Source: Candidatus Spongiisociaceae bacterium
GTDB taxonomy: Bacteria > Actinomycetota > Acidimicrobiia > Spongiisociales > Spongiisociaceae
Reading direction: 5' to 3'
DNA: 64,000 bases
Assembly: GCA_965202665.1 (NCBI GenBank)
Contig: OZ241841.1
Span: 96,001-160,000, forward strand
Shown here: one piece after another, positions 11,764-43,719 of the stretch
Layout: every line of letters starts with the position of its first letter
Position numbering within the stretch: the first letter of the stretch is position 1
Translations under genes and position numbers: made by a program
The notes under the pieces: generated by a model
Databases searched by the model: none
The model's input: the letters and a program-made list of their open reading frames with translations, nothing else
What the model was told of the DNA's origin: nothing

Positions 11764-12269
11764 CTAGCGGCCTCCGCCATCACCAGCCGCCCCCACCGGC
11801 CCGCCGTATGCTGCAGATGGCACAGGGCCACCGCCAAGGCGTCTGCGGCGTCCGCCGGGCGGGGCGGGGCCGCCAGGCCCAGGCGGCGGGCCACCATTCG
11901 CTGCATCTGGGTTTTGTTAGCCGCCCCGTCCCCGGTCACCACCGCCTTGATGGCCGAAGGGGAATATTCGGCGGCGTCCACTCCGGCCGCGGCCGCGGCC
12001 AGCAGGGCCGTCCCCGCCGCCTGCACCACCCCGGTGGCGGTAGCCAAGTTGCGGTTGACGAACACCTGCTCCACGGCCATCACCTCCGGCCGCAACTCGG
12101 CCAAAAGGCCGGTCAGGTCGTTGTACAACTCCAGCAGGCGACGGGAAGTGGGCAGGGCCCGGTCGGTGCGGATAACCCCCGTCGCCACCGCCTCCACCTC
12201 GGTTCCCGCGGAACGCAAAGCCCCGAAGCCGGTGGCCGTCAATCCGGGATCTATACCGAGTACGAACAT
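11760..12269 (-). CDS. ruvC: Crossover junction endodeoxyribonuclease RuvC
   Basis: MFVLGIDPG, AVEQVF, PADAADALAVALCH; start at ATG 12269. Confidence 0.96.
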   Translation of the reverse strand: MFVLGIDPGLTATGFGALRSAGTEVEAVATGVIRTDRALPTSRRLLELYNDLTGLLAELRPEVMAVEQVFVNRNLATATGVVQAAGTALLAAAAAGVDAAEYSPSAIKAVVTGDGAANKTQMQRMVARRLGLAAPPRPADAADALAVALCHLQHTAGRWGRLVMAEAAR

Positions 12270-12277
12270 ATGTTCTA
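12262..12277. promoter_or_regulatory. LexA (SOS) box overlapping the ruvC start codon
   Basis: ACGAACATATGTTCTA fits the actinobacterial consensus TCGAAC-N4-GTTCGA. Confidence 0.8.
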
Positions 12278-26945: not shown

Positions 26946-27021
26946 AGGAACATATGTTCGATTAGTTACATCCTCAGTATTACCGAACGCGTGTTCGGTG
27001 TCAAATCGAACATATGTTTGT
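26946..27021. promoter_or_regulatory. Three LexA boxes in the lysM-lexA divergent region
   Basis: AGGAACATATGTTCGA (26946-26961), CCGAACGCGTGTTCGG (26983-26998), TCGAACATATGTTTGT (27006-27021); the middle box lies just downstream of a minus-strand TTGACA (27004-26999). Confidence 0.9.
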
Positions 27022-28231: not shown

Positions 28232-28605
28232 TGTACAAGGCCGGTAGGTTGGTTACAGTCTGGAGGTTGGTGGTTTGCCTCCGAGGCTGTAGTGGGGCCG
28301 GTAGTTGTGGTAGTAGTGGAGCCAGTGGCGGAGGGCTTGGTTTCGGGTTTGGTTGTCGGGCCAGGGTTGGGAGTTGGCCCATTTGGGTTTGAGGGTTTGG
28401 TTGTATCGTTCCACTTTGCCGTTCTGCTGGGGATGATACGGTTTGATCGTGATATGACGGATGCCGTGTTGGGCGAGCAGGGAAGCGAACGCTCGGCTGC
28501 GGGTGTAGCTGCGGTGGTTATTGGTCATGATCTCCGCGATGTGGGTGACGCCCAGTTGGTGGAAGTGGTGTATGGCGCGGGCGGTGAACGTCCTGGCCAA
28601 GTACA
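28232..28605 (-). mobile_element. Internally deleted IS481-family element (374 bp) with both ends intact
   Basis: TGT...ACA ends; imperfect inverted repeats TGTACAAGGCCGGTAGGTT / TGTACTTGGCCAGGACGTT; flanks ACTAGG and GCTAGG (IS481 targets NCTAGN); encodes only the transposase C-terminus (PYHPQQNGKVERYNQTL, RPHYSLGG). Confidence 0.85.
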
Positions 28606-32327: not shown

Positions 32328-33857
32328 CTAACGGGCGTAGTCGGTGACACGCACTTCCCGAATCACCGTCACCTGAATGTGATTGGAGTAGCGCAGGTCG
32401 TTTTCCATGCGGCGGGCCACCGAATGGGCCAGGTGGGCGGCGGCCAAGTCGTCCACCTCCCCCGGGTCCACCACTATCCTAACCTCCCGGCCGGCCTGCA
32501 TGGCGTACACTTGCTCCACCCCGCTGAACTCCCGCACCAGCGACTCTATTCTTTCCAGGCGGCGCATATAGGATTGCGCGGTGTTGTTGCGGGCCCCCGG
32601 ACGGGATGCGGACACGGTGTCGGCCGTCTGTACGATGATGGACAGCAAAGTTCGGGGCTCCACTTCGTTGTGGTGGGCTTCTATCCCGTGCACCACCGCC
32701 GGGTCCTCCCCGAAGCGGCGGGCTATCTCGGCTCCGATCAGCGCGTGGGAACCCTGCACTTCGTGGGTGACCGCCTTGCCGATGTCGTGCAAGAAGGCGG
32801 ACCTTTTCACATCGGCCGGGTCGATGCCCAGTTCGGCGGCCAGCATTCCGGCCAGGTGGGCGGATTCGATCAGATGGTTGAGCACGTTCTGCCCGTACGA
32901 GGTGCGGTATTTGAGGCGGCCCAGCAGGGTGATCAGTTCGGGGTGTATTTGGGAGGCCCCCGCTTCCAGCACCGCCCACTCCCCGGCGTCCCGCACCGAC
33001 TGCTCCACTTCCGTCTGGGCTTTCTCGTAGGACTCTTCGATGGAGGCGGGGTGGATTCGCCCGTCGGCCACCAGGTTCTCCAAAGCGAGGCGGGCGATTT
33101 CCCGGCGGACGGGATCGAAGGAGCTGACCATCACCATTTCCGGCGTGTCGTCCACCACCAAGTTGACCCCGGTTACCGACTCGAACGCCCGGATGTTGCG
33201 GCCTTCCCGGCCAATGATGCGGCCTTTCAGTTCATCGTTGGGCAAGGACACGGCGGAAACGGTGGTTTCGGCGGTGACCGGGGCGGCCAAGCGTTCGATG
33301 GCGGTGGTGAGTATGCGACGGGCCCGGCGGTCGGCTTCCTCCCGCACCCGCAGTTCGGTTTCCCGGACCATCAACATCCCCTCCCGGCGGGTTTCTTCCT
33401 TGATTTGCTTGAGCAGTTCCTCTTTGGCGGCGGCGGCGTCCATGAGGGAAATCCGCTCCAGGCGGGCCCGGGCGTCGTGGCCTATCCGTTCCGCTTCCGA
33501 ACGCAGGTCGTTCGCTTCGGCTTCCCGGCGGGCCGCCATCTGCTCCCGCAAAGCCAGGTTGGAGGCCCGTTGCTCCAGGGTCTGCTCCCGTTGCGCCAAC
33601 CGGTCCTCGGAGGACGCCAACTCCATCCGCCGCTGATCCATCTCCGTCTGTCCCCGCTCCAGGTACTCGTCCACCCGGGCCCGCCCCTCGTCCTCGGCGC
33701 GGTCCATCAAACGTTGCGCCCGCCGCCGGGCCGCCGCCCCCGGATCCTCCAGCACGTTCCTCCGCACGCGCCGCGCCGCCGCCAGCGCCCAAAGCGACAA
33801 CCCCAGTATCGCCCCGCACGCCCCGACCGCAATCACCGACGTAAGACTGACTTCCAT
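32328..33857 (-). CDS. rny: Ribonuclease Y
   Basis: N-terminal TM, coiled coil, KH domain (KGRIIGREGRNIR), HD domain (LHDIGKA), SRPGAR. Confidence 0.97.
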   Translation of the reverse strand: MEVSLTSVIAVGACGAILGLSLWALAAARRVRRNVLEDPGAAARRRAQRLMDRAEDEGRARVDEYLERGQTEMDQRRMELASSEDRLAQREQTLEQRASNLALREQMAARREAEANDLRSEAERIGHDARARLERISLMDAAAAKEELLKQIKEETRREGMLMVRETELRVREEADRRARRILTTAIERLAAPVTAETTVSAVSLPNDELKGRIIGREGRNIRAFESVTGVNLVVDDTPEMVMVSSFDPVRREIARLALENLVADGRIHPASIEESYEKAQTEVEQSVRDAGEWAVLEAGASQIHPELITLLGRLKYRTSYGQNVLNHLIESAHLAGMLAAELGIDPADVKRSAFLHDIGKAVTHEVQGSHALIGAEIARRFGEDPAVVHGIEAHHNEVEPRTLLSIIVQTADTVSASRPGARNNTAQSYMRRLERIESLVREFSGVEQVYAMQAGREVRIVVDPGEVDDLAAAHLAHSVARRMENDLRYSNHIQVTVIREVRVTDYAR

Positions 33858-33964
33858 TACCTTCCCAAGTTTGGTCACCGCCCCGGCCCTCCGACCAAAG
33901 CACCCCCATCCTAACAAAACCCATTACCAAATTGAAACCGCCTTAGGATAAGGAAAGGAACCAG

Positions 33965-34993
33965 CTAATCCTCCGACCAGGAGAAAGGCAAAGAAGGAGA
34001 CATTTCCGTTACGTTACCAAAACATAGTCCACTCTCAATCTGCGGAGGTGGACTTCTATCAAAAAGTTCGTATCTTACGGTAGGGTGGGGAGGTTTTATG
34101 TCAGGGATGCCTATACCTTCCAAAGTATCCTGGCCTTTATTTGCCTGACGTATTATGTTAGCTTTAGCCTGCATCATAGGAATAATATTCCTAGAATAAG
34201 ATTCATATATGTATTCCATAATAAGATCACCGACGGGGTGGTCTGTTGCAAAAATTAATGTATAAATTGGTATATTGTTATCTCTTATCCCTAGCGCATG
34301 TGTTTTCTTATATTGCAATATTGTCTCTAGCCTTTTTCGATATAATTTGATCAATTCTTTTCTCATATTACTTGCATCCAAAAGGCCACTACGACGACGC
34401 TGATATATTGAAACCCAGTCCTCTGTCCCGTATACGCTATTTACTAAATCAATACTACTCTTTCCTTTCGCAACTTCAGCACCTATAACACGAAGCAGTG
34501 CTGGTTCAGGAAATAGTATGAATAACTCAATTTTAGGCTTACCTCTATCTTTCCATTTAGCTAATTTCTCCAAAGTTGCCCATTTAACTTGAAGTCCACA
34601 AGGATCAAGAAAAGCAATTGTAGGTGCTGATCTGTTCTTTATATACTCTAAACCCATATCAATTGTATTATTACAGTCTCCAGGCAACACCTTCCAATCG
34701 CGAACATTGTGAGATACGCTCGTCTGAATTGATGATCTCAGGACTTCCGCTTTATCTCGCTTTTCGAATAATGCTACACGCGTGAAAGTCGGCTCGACAT
34801 TAAAAGCGATCTGCGGCGAGCCGGGGAAGTATCCTTCCTCGTCACGCCTTTTATTACGATATGACCCAGCAAACAGATCAAGATATATCCTATCGCGGGC
34901 ACTTTTGCTAGCAATTGCAAATGGCCTTAGGTAATCCCATAGAATATCTATCTTGGTCTCTGACCACCAAGACCAATCTCTTTGCTCTGGCAT
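33965..34993 (-). CDS. tcmP: Three-Cys-motif partner protein (TcmP family, SAM-methyltransferase-like fold)
   Basis: WSETKIDIL..YL, YLDLFAGS, GSPQIA, GDCN, AFLDP.G.QV.W..L, YTLIFAT; AT-rich; adjacent to DUF5131. Confidence 0.85.
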   Translation of the reverse strand: MPEQRDWSWWSETKIDILWDYLRPFAIASKSARDRIYLDLFAGSYRNKRRDEEGYFPGSPQIAFNVEPTFTRVALFEKRDKAEVLRSSIQTSVSHNVRDWKVLPGDCNNTIDMGLEYIKNRSAPTIAFLDPCGLQVKWATLEKLAKWKDRGKPKIELFILFPEPALLRVIGAEVAKGKSSIDLVNSVYGTEDWVSIYQRRRSGLLDASNMRKELIKLYRKRLETILQYKKTHALGIRDNNIPIYTLIFATDHPVGDLIMEYIYESYSRNIIPMMQAKANIIRQANKGQDTLEGIGIPDIKPPHPTVRYELFDRSPPPQIESGLCFGNVTEMSPSLPFSWSED

Positions 34994-34999
34994 ATATCG

Positions 35000-35746
35000 T
35001 CACAACTTCCTTGCCGGTGGCATTTCGTTGTGGGTTTGGCCTTGGAGGGTGCGGCCGCCGGATTTGGGGGTGCGGCCGCCCCATTGTTTAAAGAAAAAGG
35101 GGACTTGGGCGGTATCGCACTGGTCGCGTAGGTCAGTAGCCCACTCTCCTTGCATGGGGCGGGCGCCGGGGCCGCTCTCCCCGCCTACGATCATCCAGTG
35201 GATGCCGTCTAGGTCAAGATTGGGTAGCGGTCCCAGCAACGGTTCGGCGCTTATGAACCTTACGGCCGCGTCCACTGTCCGCAGGTGGTCGATTCTGAAT
35301 TTGTAGCGGGCGGTTTCCACGCTCACGCCCATCCACAGGTTGGGCGGCCACGCCAGTTTCTGACCGAACCGGGCCAGGCGTTGGGAACGTTTGGTTAGCA
35401 ACTGGTACTGATGTTGCGGCGTGTCGGCTATCACCTCGAACACCCGGCGTATGTAATCGTCGGGCACGTCCTTGTGGAACAGATCGCTCATGGAGTCCAC
35501 GAAGATGGTGCGGGGCTTGCGCCAGGAACGGGGAATATCCAATGCGTCGGGATGCAATGTCATTCCAAAACCGGGTCCGCTGGTGCGGGGGTCGCCGTCG
35601 TTACGATACTTTGCCACCCCCATCGCTTGCAATCGCTTGGCCAATGTGAGGGCGTAGCAGTTGTCGCATCCCGGCGAGGTGCGGTCGCAACCGGTGGTCG
35701 GATTCCACGTTGCTTCCGTCCATTCTATGGCGCTCCTGTCAGACAT
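35000..35746 (-). CDS. DUF5131 / phage Gp37-Gp68 family radical-SAM-like protein
   Basis: IEWTEATWNPTTGCDRTSPGCDNCYA (Cx6Cx2C), FVDSMSDLFH, LLTKR, SAEPLLG, VGGESG, FFFKQWGG. Confidence 0.93.
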   Translation of the reverse strand: MSDRSAIEWTEATWNPTTGCDRTSPGCDNCYALTLAKRLQAMGVAKYRNDGDPRTSGPGFGMTLHPDALDIPRSWRKPRTIFVDSMSDLFHKDVPDDYIRRVFEVIADTPQHQYQLLTKRSQRLARFGQKLAWPPNLWMGVSVETARYKFRIDHLRTVDAAVRFISAEPLLGPLPNLDLDGIHWMIVGGESGPGARPMQGEWATDLRDQCDTAQVPFFFKQWGGRTPKSGGRTLQGQTHNEMPPARKL

Positions 35747-36413
35747 TTTTCCCACTCCGCGCCCGCCCGCCATTAACTTCCAGGCCCCAGGCGCGCCAGC
35801 CTTCGACCTGTTGCCGGGCGAACAGCTCGATCTTCTTCTGTGCGGGAAACATTTGTTCGATGCGTTTGCGCACCTCGGCGGGTTTCTCCGAATGGGCGCC
35901 CCGTTTGTATCTCAAAAACTGGCGCACGTTGCGCGCCCCGCGCGGACTGGGAATTTTGCCGCGTTTGAAAACCAGGCACATCTCGCACTGGCTCATCGTG
36001 TAGAAGCCGGGGTTCACCCGTATCTTGTCCCACACGAATGCCACCGTCGCCCACGCAAAGCCCCATGTTTTGCCCAGGTCTATAGCCTGATCCAGGTGCG
36101 GGTTGGTGGCCCACATGAACAGCAGGCAGTCGTCCGCCGCGATGTCGGGCACGGCTAGGCCCTTCAAGTGGTCCAGCGTAACGGTCGGGTAGTGCCGCAT
36201 CGCTCCGCCCGTGTCCCGGTTGCCCGCTCCGGCATGTTGCAGTTGCCCTTTGTAATCCCAAGGCGGGTCGGCGTAGATGATGTCAAACTGGTCTTGCGGG
36301 AGAGCGGGGAAGCCGCCGGTGTCTCCGTTCCATATCTGGTCGAACTCGGCGCGGGTCAGTTGCCCGGGCTCCGCCTCCGTCGGCTGCAACGCCCCTTTAC
36401 CCGTGATGGTCAT
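35739..36413 (-). CDS. MT-A70 family amino-methyltransferase
   Basis: IIYADPPW, HYPTV, LFMWATNPHL, FVWDK, HSEKP, KIELFAR, WGLE. Confidence 0.92.
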   Translation of the reverse strand: MTITGKGALQPTEAEPGQLTRAEFDQIWNGDTGGFPALPQDQFDIIYADPPWDYKGQLQHAGAGNRDTGGAMRHYPTVTLDHLKGLAVPDIAADDCLLFMWATNPHLDQAIDLGKTWGFAWATVAFVWDKIRVNPGFYTMSQCEMCLVFKRGKIPSPRGARNVRQFLRYKRGAHSEKPAEVRKRIEQMFPAQKKIELFARQQVEGWRAWGLEVNGGRARSGKNV

Positions 36414-36500
36414 TTTGTCCCTCCGCTTTCGTCCGGGGCGCATCCGGCGTCGCCCCGGACGAAAGTCAGCATATATCCTCGGCTTGCCGCCAACCGGGGG

Positions 36501-37547
36501 TCAGGCGGGGGTTGGGGCGGGAGCTTCGGTTTGGGTTTGGTCTGTTTCGGGGGCGGGTTCGGGCGGGGGGTTGACCGAAGCCAGGACTTGGGCTTGGAGT
36601 TGCATGGCCACCTCCGGGTTCTCCCGCAGGAAAGCCTTGGCCTTCTCCCGGCCCTGACCCAACTGGTCGCCGTCGAAGGTGTACCAGGCGCCGCTTTTCT
36701 TCACGATGCCCTCCGCCACCGCCACATCCAGCAGGCTCCCCTCCCAGGAAATGCCTTTCCCGAACATGATGTCGAACTCAGCCACCCGAAACGGAGGGGC
36801 CACCTTGTTTTTCACCACCCGCGCCCGCACCCGGTTGCCGATCTGAACGCCCCCGTCCTTGATCGCCTCAATCCGCCGCACGTCGATCCGCACGCTGGAA
36901 TAAAACTTCAACGCCCGCCCACCCGGCGTCACCTCCGGCGATCCGTACACCACCCCAATCTTCTCCCTAAGCTGATTGATAAACACCGCCGTGGTGGACG
37001 ACCGGTTTATTCCCGCCGTCAACTTCCGCAACGCCTGCGACATCAACCGAGCCTGCAAACCCACATGGGTGTCGCCCATCTCCCCCTCAATCTCCGCCCG
37101 CGGCACCAACGCCGCCACCGAATCCACCACCACCACATCCAAGGCGTTGGAGCGCACCAGAATATCGGCTATCTCCAAAGCCTGCTCCCCGGTGTCCGGT
37201 TGCGACAGCAGCAGCTCGTCGGTGTCCACCCCCAATGCCTGCGCGTACACCGGATCCAACGCGTGTTCGGCGTCCACGAAAGCCGCCAACCCCCCGTTGC
37301 GTTGCGCCTCCGCCACCACATGCAAAGCCAACGTGGTCTTCCCGCTCGACTCAGGGCCGTACACCTCCACCACCCGCCCCCGGGGCACCCCCCCGATGCC
37401 CAAGGCGATATCCAAGGCCAAAGCCCCGGTGGAGATGTGCTCCACCCTCAAGTGGGTCCCCTCGCCCAACTTCATGATCGCCCCCTTGCCGAACTGCCGC
37501 TCAATCTGCGACATCGCCCCATCCAAAGCCTGACTCTTTTCCTTCAT
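36501..37547 (-). CDS. recA: Recombinase RecA
   Basis: [46 protein letters not shown]. Confidence 0.99.
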
Positions 37548-37837: not shown

Positions 37838-37866
37838 ATACTACCCGAACGTATGTTCGGTTACAA
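37838..37866 (-). promoter_or_regulatory. Distal LexA-repressed recA promoter
   Basis: Minus strand TTGTAA-17 nt-TAGTAT with SOS box CCGAACGTATGTTCGG (37845-37860) in the spacer. Confidence 0.85.
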
Positions 37867-42501: not shown

Positions 42502-43719
42502 ATGGATGGCAAAAGGTTCATCCGAACCATCCGCTTGGAGAACATCCTTTCCTACGGTCCGGACAGGACCGAGTTAGAACTGCAACCGTTGAATGTACTG
42601 ATTGGCCCCAACGCCTCCGGCAAATCCAATCTGATCGAGGCTCTGTCGCTACTTGAATCCGCTCCTGGCAATCTGCAAAGGCCCATAGAAATGGGAGGTG
42701 GTATTAGAGAATGGTTATGGAAAGGACAGGACGATTTACCTATTGCTACGATAGAAGTTACCGTAGAACATCCCAACCAACTTTCGGATATTCGATATAA
42801 ACTATCATTTTCAGAGACAAATCTGGGAGGTTTTAAATTGCAAGACGAAACAATAGAAGGAACAAAAAACAAAAATAAAAACGGAGAACCACCCTTTTAT
42901 TATCAATACAATGAAGGCAAATCAGTGCTTTATTCTAAAGATATTTCAAAAAAATCAAAATGGAAGCAAAGGAGTTTGGAAATAGATTTAAGTTTCGAAC
43001 AATCCATTCTATCTCAGTTTCGTGACCCGGTGGTGTTTCCAGAGCTTGATTACTTGAGTGATCAATTTAAAAGTATATGGTTTTACCGTGAATGGGACCT
43101 TGGACACTATAAACCACCCCGTATCCCTCTACCAATTGATTTTCCCGTATCCTATCTATTCGAAGATGCTTCTAATCTTAGTTTAGTTTTAAGTACTCTA
43201 TTAAAAAACCCTGAACTAAAAGAAAAAATTATTAATTATATGAAGATTTTTTATCCAAATAGCACCGATATCGGTTTTGAAGTAAAAAGTGGAGGTGTTC
43301 TCATGCACTTACATGAACGAGGTCTGAGACATCGAGTTCCGGCGACTAGATTATCAGATGGAACTCTACGCTTTCTCTGCTTACTAACTATCTTATTGCA
43401 TCCTGATCCACCATCCATAATCTGTATAGAAGAACCAGAAGGCGGCTTACATCCGGATATTATTCCGGAAGTAGGAAAACTGCTAGTTGATGCATCATCT
43501 CGTAGTCAGATTATTGTTACCACTCATTCCGATATTCTAGTTGATGCCTTATCCGATTTTCCAGAATCGATTATCGTCTGCGAAAAACCCGAAATATCTA
43601 CTCAATTGCAACGATTAGATCGAGAAGAAATCGAAAAGTGGCTCAGCGCATACCGTGGAAAAGAAAACCAACTTGGAACAATGTGGACAAATGGAGAAAT
43701 AGGGGGAAACCGATGGTAA
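42502..43719 (+). CDS. ABC/AAA_21-type ATPase
   Basis: NVLIGPNASGKSN Walker A, LSDGTLR signature, IEEPEGGLHP Walker B/D-loop, QIIVTTHS; AT-rich. Confidence 0.92.
   Translation: MDGKRFIRTIRLENILSYGPDRTELELQPLNVLIGPNASGKSNLIEALSLLESAPGNLQRPIEMGGGIREWLWKGQDDLPIATIEVTVEHPNQLSDIRYKLSFSETNLGGFKLQDETIEGTKNKNKNGEPPFYYQYNEGKSVLYSKDISKKSKWKQRSLEIDLSFEQSILSQFRDPVVFPELDYLSDQFKSIWFYREWDLGHYKPPRIPLPIDFPVSYLFEDASNLSLVLSTLLKNPELKEKIINYMKIFYPNSTDIGFEVKSGGVLMHLHERGLRHRVPATRLSDGTLRFLCLLTILLHPDPPSIICIEEPEGGLHPDIIPEVGKLLVDASSRSQIIVTTHSDILVDALSDFPESIIVCEKPEISTQLQRLDREEIEKWLSAYRGKENQLGTMWTNGEIGGNRW

Follow-up and report, generated by a model that had tools for sequence, protein, structure and literature searches.

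A recA–rny slot in a Spongiisociaceae genome very probably holds two separate units, an orphan MunI-type methylase and an exchangeable DUF5131–TcmP pair

Genes for TcmP and DUF5131 proteins are catalogued together in PADLOC as the candidate anti-phage systems PDC-M41 and PDC-M30. The PDC entries are predictions: the available part of the source preprint lists 145 of them, reports seven other systems as confirmed and leaves M41 and M30 unnamed in its main text (bioRxiv 10.1101/2024.01.29.577857). Searches of open literature, where most subscription papers are missing, turned up no work that tests what the pair does, though the supplements of the PADLOC preprint may hold more; the accessible portions of 10.64898/2026.10.19.760177 and PMC10853773 do not mention it. 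One TcmP gene, SMa2243, is described as up-regulated together with the defence gene hna (PMC12445080, accessible portion). Three enzymes outside the catalogue resemble single proteins considered here, each as far as the accessible text of its source goes. RlmJ, a ribosomal RNA (rRNA) methyltransferase, depends on K18 and D164 and has an active site resembling that of DNA N6-methyladenine (m6A) methylases (PMC3814359); spore photoproduct lyase (SPL) ends its repair reaction with C140 as hydrogen donor, and its C140S variant leaves a base radical that goes on to adducts (PMC3467042); and M.MunI, the methylase of a restriction–modification (R-M) system, has been grouped with a circularly permuted MT-A70 clade (PMC4738411). 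Here we describe a locus in which an MT-A70 methylase gene, a DUF5131 gene and tcmP follow one another between recA and rny. It lies in a stretch of 64,000 nucleotides, hereafter the window (positions 96,001 to 160,000 of contig OZ241841.1, assembly GCA_965202665.1), from a Candidatus Spongiisociaceae bacterium whose genome (G000) measures 2.77 Mb, has 64% G+C and is 94% complete.

The recA–rny gap is, with high probability, a variable slot with two independent units, a MunI-type methylase and the DUF5131–TcmP pair. On the minus strand throughout, recA is followed after a gap of 87 nucleotides by the MT-A70 gene, which overlaps the DUF5131 gene by 8 nucleotides (ATGTCTGA); 6 nucleotides separate DUF5131 from tcmP, and rny and miaB come next. 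The features of the locus are as follows.

37847-37858, no strand assigned: LexA/SOS-type palindrome GAAC-N4-GTTC, ~300 nucleotides upstream of the recA start.
36501-37547, minus strand: recA (PF00154, 460 bits), the upstream flank of the variable slot.
36426-36465, minus strand: G+C-rich hairpin with a stem of ~15 base pairs but lacking a U tract; it comes after recA and before the ribosome-binding site of the methylase, and may act as a terminator or attenuator.
35739-36413, minus strand: MT-A70-family, MunI-type N6-adenine DNA methyltransferase, an apparent orphan; 224 amino acids, DPPW at 49-52, PF05063.
35000-35746, minus strand: DUF5131 (phage Gp37/Gp68) protein with a predicted radical-SAM fold; 248 amino acids, C20-x6-C27-x2-C30, PF07505, PADLOC PDC-M41B/M30B.
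33965-34993, minus strand: tcmP, AT-rich and hypervariable, with an RlmJ-like S-adenosylmethionine (SAM)-methyltransferase fold; 342 amino acids, TIGR04474, PADLOC PDC-M41A.
33938-35767, no strand assigned: exchangeable block of DUF5131 and tcmP, 1830 nucleotides, replaced by 654 other bases in close strains.
32328-33917, minus strand: rny (RNase Y, PF12072, KH and HD domains), the downstream flank; start codon uncertain.

A sequence-only reading of the window had described three tightly spaced frames co-oriented with recA, 87 nucleotides behind its stop, had labelled them MT-A70, DUF5131 and TcmP, and had called tcmP much the most AT-rich. Coordinates, strand, overlap and gaps are all as that reading gave them, and hidden Markov model (HMM) searches place each protein above the curated cut-off of its family: 74.7 bits against 23.9 for MT-A70 (PF05063), 333.5 against 28.9 for DUF5131 (PF07505) and 158.7 against 53 for TcmP (TIGR04474). 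A scan with the PADLOC models assigns TcmP to PDC-M41A (98.9 bits, E 1.2e-28), DUF5131 to PDC-M41B (363.5 bits, E 1.1e-109) and also to M30B, and the MT-A70 protein to the type II methyltransferases (196.7 bits); the PDC-M41 assignment stands for HMM matches of two neighbouring genes. The G+C content of tcmP is 0.40 (0.34 at third codon positions), as opposed to 0.61 for DUF5131, 0.62 for MT-A70, and 0.64 for both recA and the genome. This deficit of 0.21 is among the three largest in 98 DUF5131/TcmP loci, where the median is 0.04.

Separate origins for the methylase and the pair are indicated by surveys of the best 80 of 83 GTDB MT-A70 loci, 80 of 595 metagenome DUF5131 loci and 80 of 591 viral DUF5131 loci (L123 and L126, identical in sequence, were counted once). 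A neighbourhood survey for recurrence of the triad was a check that the sequence-only reading had itself named, having proposed that the three proteins form a single multi-step modification pathway. The survey speaks against that proposal, for MT-A70 rarely co-occurs with DUF5131 or TcmP. On the MT-A70 side, DUF5131 is adjacent in 1/80 loci, that of the sister species (L059), where TcmP is not present. On the DUF5131 side, MT-A70 appears in 0/160 loci, 80 metagenome and 80 viral, with a six-frame rescan included. Neither DUF5131 nor TcmP lies within 1.5 kb of a further 15 MT-A70 loci, more distant ones from relatives. Of the 24 full-length DUF5131 loci that 61 related genomes contain, the methylase adjoins only those of G000 and of the sister species. 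The latter (G001) has the methylase next to an intact DUF5131 gene, and no TcmP was found in its genome. Two candidate loci were rejected. At L077 a DUF5131–TcmP pair lies 3.5 kb from the methylase, the pair at a tRNA-Asn and the methylase behind a dnaN-like gene; at L296 a weak MT-A70 match (E 2.6e-5) near a viral DUF5131 gene is called an N6/N4 methylase by Pfam. We are strongly inclined to regard the triad as a local juxtaposition of two separate acquisitions and not as a conserved system.

DUF5131 and TcmP are regular partners, as had been claimed. TcmP lies beside DUF5131 in 63/80 metagenome and 30/80 viral loci (93/160 together) and, where both flanks reach 1 kb, in 34/41 and 24/63, respectively. 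The two genes occur in four arrangements (52, 26, 18 and 2 of 98 loci), and the window order, DUF5131 then TcmP, is that of 26/98. Recurrent neighbours of DUF5131 loci are DNA methylases (N6/N4 type, HsdM and C5), integrases and recombinases. G000 itself carries a second DUF5131 gene, at a tRNA-Met with two TcmP genes and no MT-A70. This site is an AT-rich island (L010:2735-8973, G000:C1 ~2138700-2145000) comprising an HD-domain gene, a frame of 546 amino acids that joins an unknown N-terminal part to a TcmP with a winged helix-turn-helix (wHTH), a second TcmP-wHTH gene and the convergent DUF5131, so that one DUF5131 is common to two TcmP paralogues.

The methylase has a different customary partner. 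The most common neighbour of its relatives is a nuclease of 170-200 amino acids, and 16/18 of those tested pass the cut-off of the Pfam family RestrictionMunI (PF11407). With a profile built from these neighbour nucleases, an R.MunI gene or remnant was found beside 27/80 MT-A70 relatives, made up of 19 frames of at least 170 amino acids (two probably damaged, two identical) and 8 fragments. In the tree that includes the window methylase, R.MunI-linked rows occur throughout; it is a quick tree with many open forks, and no donor is claimed from it. About 50 of the 80 relatives share the orphan state seen here. No nuclease lies inside the cassette, as the earlier reading had stated; a six-frame HMM search of the 94% complete G000, in which two positive controls were matched, found no R.MunI, and a PF11407 search of the genome was also blank, with no positive control matched in that search. 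Motif IV of the methylase, DPPW, is intact and aligns to solved MT-A70 chains. We infer that a type II system lost its nuclease here and that the methylase is its remaining M subunit, which probably still writes m6A at a short palindrome; for MunI we take this to be CAATTG.

Methylases of this type (L059-L122) are 57-80% identical across records from Chloroflexota, Alphaproteobacteria, Acidimicrobiia, Gemmatimonadota and Poribacteria, most of them orphaned or beside the decayed remains of a nuclease, in housekeeping surroundings that are fixed within each lineage; at L116, methylase and nuclease-like sequence share one frame. The most under-represented 6-mer palindromes of G000 are CTCGAG (0.37), CACGTG (0.39) and ATCGAT (0.49), a depletion pointing to other putative restriction systems.

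Close strains keep the methylase without the DUF5131–TcmP pair. In runs X4 and X12, from two studies, contigs join position 33937, on the rny side, to position 35768, at the methylase end, with 654 other bases instead of the 1830-nucleotide block. The X12 junction contig shows 9 differences in 438 bases on the rny side and 31 in 278 on the methylase side, and the rny-side identity indicates that it comes from a close strain. X4 carries the 654-base allele alongside DUF5131–tcmP alleles. As a guess, the size of the insert fits a MunI-type nuclease gene (170-180 amino acids, ~510-540 nucleotides); for none of the 120 listed of 245 R.MunI-like proteins did the longest contig match in length. Where the pair is present (alleles from X10, X11 and X4), rny and DUF5131 are 98-99% identical and tcmP can be aligned only in patches, at 83-89%, with residues ~173-222 different and this segment 6 codons shorter. 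Several of the runs that hold part of the stretch are labelled sponge metagenome.

The same uneven turnover is seen between loci. Across 96 loci, DUF5131 identity and TcmP identity correlate weakly, with a Spearman coefficient of 0.19, the pairs not being independent. In the 31 locus pairs with DUF5131 at least 80% identical, TcmP identity runs from 17 to 97%, with a median of 27% in the 80-90% band and one pair at 94% for DUF5131 against 23% for TcmP. Within eight close TcmP homologues, the motif regions are the most conserved. The claim that TcmP is swappable is borne out by these 31 pairs and by the strain alleles that diverge beside flanks of 98-99% identity. Such turnover supports an exchangeable component, whether a target selector or a sensor.

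For TcmP, profile and structure searches lead to the same enzyme. A profile from a 115-sequence alignment matches RlmJ in the PDB (E 1e-5), and the predicted model, with a mean predicted local distance difference test score (pLDDT) of 88.9, is ranked closest to RlmJ by Foldseek. VIA-align, run on Foldseek's top 1000 chains, gives RlmJ a Z of 17.4 (root-mean-square deviation (rmsd) 2.8, 219 residues aligned) and Trm1, the next, 14.3. A SAM-methyltransferase fold, as proposed from the sequence, is therefore upheld by RlmJ as best profile and best structure match. The 115 sequences have a mean column identity of 14%, and K14 (114/115), D39 (115/115), an acidic residue at 77 (114/115) and D130 (115/115) are nonetheless kept. 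D130 aligns to RlmJ D164, and K14 would, from its position, be the equivalent of RlmJ K18. A single-sequence PDB search gave no match, and PF04378, the RlmJ family, does not match the window TcmP and matches 2/115 TcmPs weakly. In the Atlas, the TcmP homologue P0014 led to TcmP clusters and also, at 0.81, to one in which RsmJ/RlmJ makes up 10%, which is a lead only. The GMT-wHTH domain occurs in 21/115 TcmPs; for the window TcmP, there was no C-terminal wHTH match.

DUF5131 is, in its predicted structure, a radical-SAM-fold protein with a variant CX6CX2C motif on a partial TIM barrel. Compared with 48,161 chains, its model (pLDDT 93.9) comes closest to SPL (Z 14.1, rmsd 2.9, 196 residues aligned), and the top structural matches are radical-SAM enzymes. 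The cysteines are all but invariant in 135 sequences (C20 134/135, C27 135/135, C30 135/135). In RadicalSAM.org, as far as the available part of its description goes, a DUF5131 subgroup neighbours SPL, in megaclusters 5-2 and 5-3 (PMC9477430). Structure match and database placement together sustain the earlier label of a radical-SAM-like protein. Sequence comparison alone gives less: no Pfam SPL match at E 0.1, and no match in PDB searches with a single sequence or with a profile. Aligned by eye, DUF5131 has IFVD-S85-MSD where SPL has FEAA-C140-TSD (the latter read from primers in PMC3467042), and S85 is invariant.

The site itself was described by the sequence-only reading as the recX position, with no recX in the window. 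The position behind recA stands, and the name is nominal: RecX (PF02631) was found in 0/29 family genomes in a search whose control matched in 8/14, so nothing shows recX displaced by the cassette. Displacement was rejected also with regard to gene order, rny coming directly after recA in just 2/22 informative other family genomes, with none of the three cassette genes within 1.5 kb. In the sister species rny is located elsewhere, and in most family genomes a gene with an Arg/Gly-rich N-terminus stands behind recA.

GAAC-N4-GTTC, which we take to be the SOS-box consensus, occurs 4 times in the window compared with 1.19 expected, a number that 0/100 shuffles reach. Such a box lies near 26/26 first-copy recA loci of the family and not near the second recA copy. 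Between recA and the methylase, the hairpin folds with a z of -2.97 (1/200 shuffles as good), and in the sister species its stem is kept and its loop changed. It was not picked up by a scan for U-tract terminators, which found none between recA and the methylase, and a promoter scan gave 2 sites where 2.0 were expected. Given the LexA box and the strong hairpin, read-through from recA appears possible but may be damped. A link to DNA damage would come with where the cassette lies, through the LexA box of recA.

The sequence-only reading had mentioned neither the LexA-type box nor the hairpin, nor the second recA of the genome. Other features were noted in passing. Three more GAAC-N4-GTTC palindromes (12264-12275, 26948-26959 and 26985-26996, the last two 37 nucleotides apart) likely mark other LexA-controlled promoters. 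The second recA (G000:C1:1276073-1277112, L009:10073-11113) has 98% protein identity to the first and differs from it at 39 of 1020 nucleotides, almost always synonymously. No SOS-type box lies within 1.5 kb of this copy, which adjoins HipA-like genes and a DUF3151 gene near dnaJ-grpE-dnaK; of 26 family genomes in which recA was matched, no other has a duplicate. Upstream of recA by 5 kb, an AT-rich gene for an AAA_21/AbiEii-type ATPase (42502-43719, PF13304) starts another low-GC segment, and a short integrase-core-like frame, IS481/IS3-type by eye, lies downstream of dapF (28253-28600).

The best explanation of the locus, and on balance a probable one, is an orphan MunI-type methylase next to a nuclease-free, DNA-modifying defence pair. 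The earlier suggestion of a possible anti-phage role carries over to the pair, which is the catalogued candidate PDC-M41, and lapses for the three genes as one system. For the chemistry of the pair we can offer a tentative proposal by analogy, rather less assured than the explanation itself. In TcmP, an RlmJ/Dam-type pocket (Lys14, Asp130) would bind SAM together with a flipped-out base. The protein would probably methylate an exocyclic amine, that of adenine N6 being the likeliest, and its variable surface would determine the sites. DUF5131 would carry a [4Fe-4S] cluster on CX6CX2C and cleave SAM to a 5′-deoxyadenosyl radical, which would abstract a hydrogen from the TcmP-marked base or its neighbour. 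The resulting base radical would be coupled, giving a hypermodified base or an adduct, rather than repaired, because an invariant Ser occupies, by eye, the position of the hydrogen-donor Cys of SPL. A swap of TcmP would change the target, and SOS read-through from recA would be possible and incidental to the site. The fullest version of this account is speculative, and we consider it doubtful as a whole: a retargetable nuclease-free DNA modifier that places an RlmJ-like mark and then an SPL-like hypermodified base or lethal adduct on invading DNA, and that, in an SOS-inducible slot, took the place of a restriction nuclease behind the MunI methylase, so that strains of one species would alternate between a nuclease allele and several TcmP alleles.

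Several observations weigh against the explanation or against parts of it. The three genes are translationally tight, and in the sister species, too, methylase and DUF5131 stand side by side, which makes local co-expression likely. TcmP is missing from 50/80 viral DUF5131 loci, which means that DUF5131 can exist without TcmP and in phages. The X4 and X12 joints were found at a likeness floor of 82-85, where contigs of foreign organisms can enter, and their methylase side is ~89% identical. CAATTG has an observed/expected ratio of 0.72 in G000, 14th of 64 palindromes and only a mild under-representation. The accessible text on RlmJ has it methylating rRNA and inactive on single-stranded DNA (PMC3814359). 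Motif IV of TcmP is DPCG in the window copy, mostly DPFG or DPYG in the family and DPP(Y/F) in 0/115, so methyl transfer is not assured, and TcmP stands outside the RlmJ family, with at most a similar way of working. The second structural match of DUF5131, at Z 11.2, is viperin, a nucleotide-modifying enzyme. Finally, hhalign of DUF5131 to an SPL-like protein left the S85 region unaligned, and the Ser-for-Cys substitution accordingly rests on alignment by eye.

Three rival accounts were weighed. The spacing of the genes (8-nucleotide overlap, 6-nucleotide gap), the methylase–DUF5131 adjacency common to the sister species, where TcmP is missing, and the recurrence of other DNA methylases (N6/N4 type, HsdM, C5) near DUF5131 would suit a single base-modification pathway of all three proteins, for example one in which m6A is further converted by the radical-SAM enzyme. 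We hold this to be highly improbable given an adjacency of 0/160 on the DUF5131 side and 1/80 on the MT-A70 side, the R.MunI partners of the methylase clade (27/80) and the close strains that have the methylase without the pair. An SOS-linked module for reversal or tolerance of DNA damage, induced behind recA, would draw on SPL as the closest fold of DUF5131, on the LexA-type box at recA and on SplB-like radical-SAM enzymes described in SOS neighbourhoods (PMC3765255, in the part available). It is improbable nonetheless: the pair lies within 1.5 kb downstream in none of 22 other informative family recA loci and elsewhere has tRNAs, R-M genes and mobility genes for neighbours, the slot is set apart from recA by a strong hairpin, and the rapid turnover of TcmP is more in keeping with an arms race than with repair.

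Somewhat more room is left for an activity without a DNA mark, although we still think it unlikely. The pair could act on RNA or free nucleotides, or a variable TcmP could do no more than sense phage and so activate a toxic radical-SAM effector in abortive infection. RlmJ is an rRNA enzyme, motif IV of TcmP departs from DPPY, viperin is the second fold match of DUF5131, and Ophion, a radical-SAM anti-phage system, is thought to act via nucleotides in the accessible part of its description (bioRxiv 10.1101/2025.09.30.679545); hypervariability, moreover, would suit either a specificity subunit or a sensor. Against this stand the SAM-binding and catalytic positions of TcmP, near-invariant across 115 very divergent sequences, and the wHTH domain of many TcmPs, and the intact DUF5131 without TcmP in the sister species indicates no toxicity alone. 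A nuclease-free, DNA-modifying pair beside an orphan methylase is thus the reading that we retain. If the pair does place a radical-made mark on DNA, and a swappable methyltransferase-like subunit selects the sites, this would amount to a new nuclease-free defence chemistry and possibly a retargetable DNA-modifying tool. The locus offers natural test material in near-identical DUF5131 beside divergent tcmP, and in strains that either have or lack the pair next to one and the same methylase; the triad as such has no significance beyond local juxtaposition.

Set against the described systems, each part of the locus has a close counterpart and a clear departure from it. The window methylase resembles that of MunI-type R-M systems in being a circularly permuted MT-A70 protein with DPPW, in a clade tied to PF11407 nucleases, and differs in a locus and genome where no nuclease gene was found. 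DUF5131 has SplB, the spore photoproduct lyase (PDB 4FHC), as its best structural match and as the neighbouring RadicalSAM.org subgroup, but the two share 13% identity, the motif is CX6CX2C instead of CX3CX2C, DUF5131 is ~90 residues shorter with no SPL profile match, and where SplB has a hydrogen-donor Cys it has, by eye, an invariant Ser. TcmP shares with RlmJ (23S rRNA m6A2030 methyltransferase) the Rossmann fold, the YxDxxAG, GSP, acidic motif II, GD and DP motifs, an Asp at the D164 position and an N-terminal-helix Lys near the K18 position; it differs in 16% identity, a motif IV of DPxG instead of DPPY and the missing PF04378 match, and whereas RlmJ is a housekeeping enzyme, TcmP is mobile, hypervariable and paired with a radical-SAM enzyme. 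The nearest relative of the pair as a whole is PADLOC PDC-M41/PDC-M30 (TcmP plus DUF5131, TIGR04474 plus PF07505), to which it conforms as adjacent genes matching the A and B models; this copy, whose TcmP has no GMT-wHTH match, differs in lying behind an orphan MunI-type methylase in the recA–rny gap. The pair is a widespread and already catalogued type, and its exchange at the level of strains is what this locus adds.

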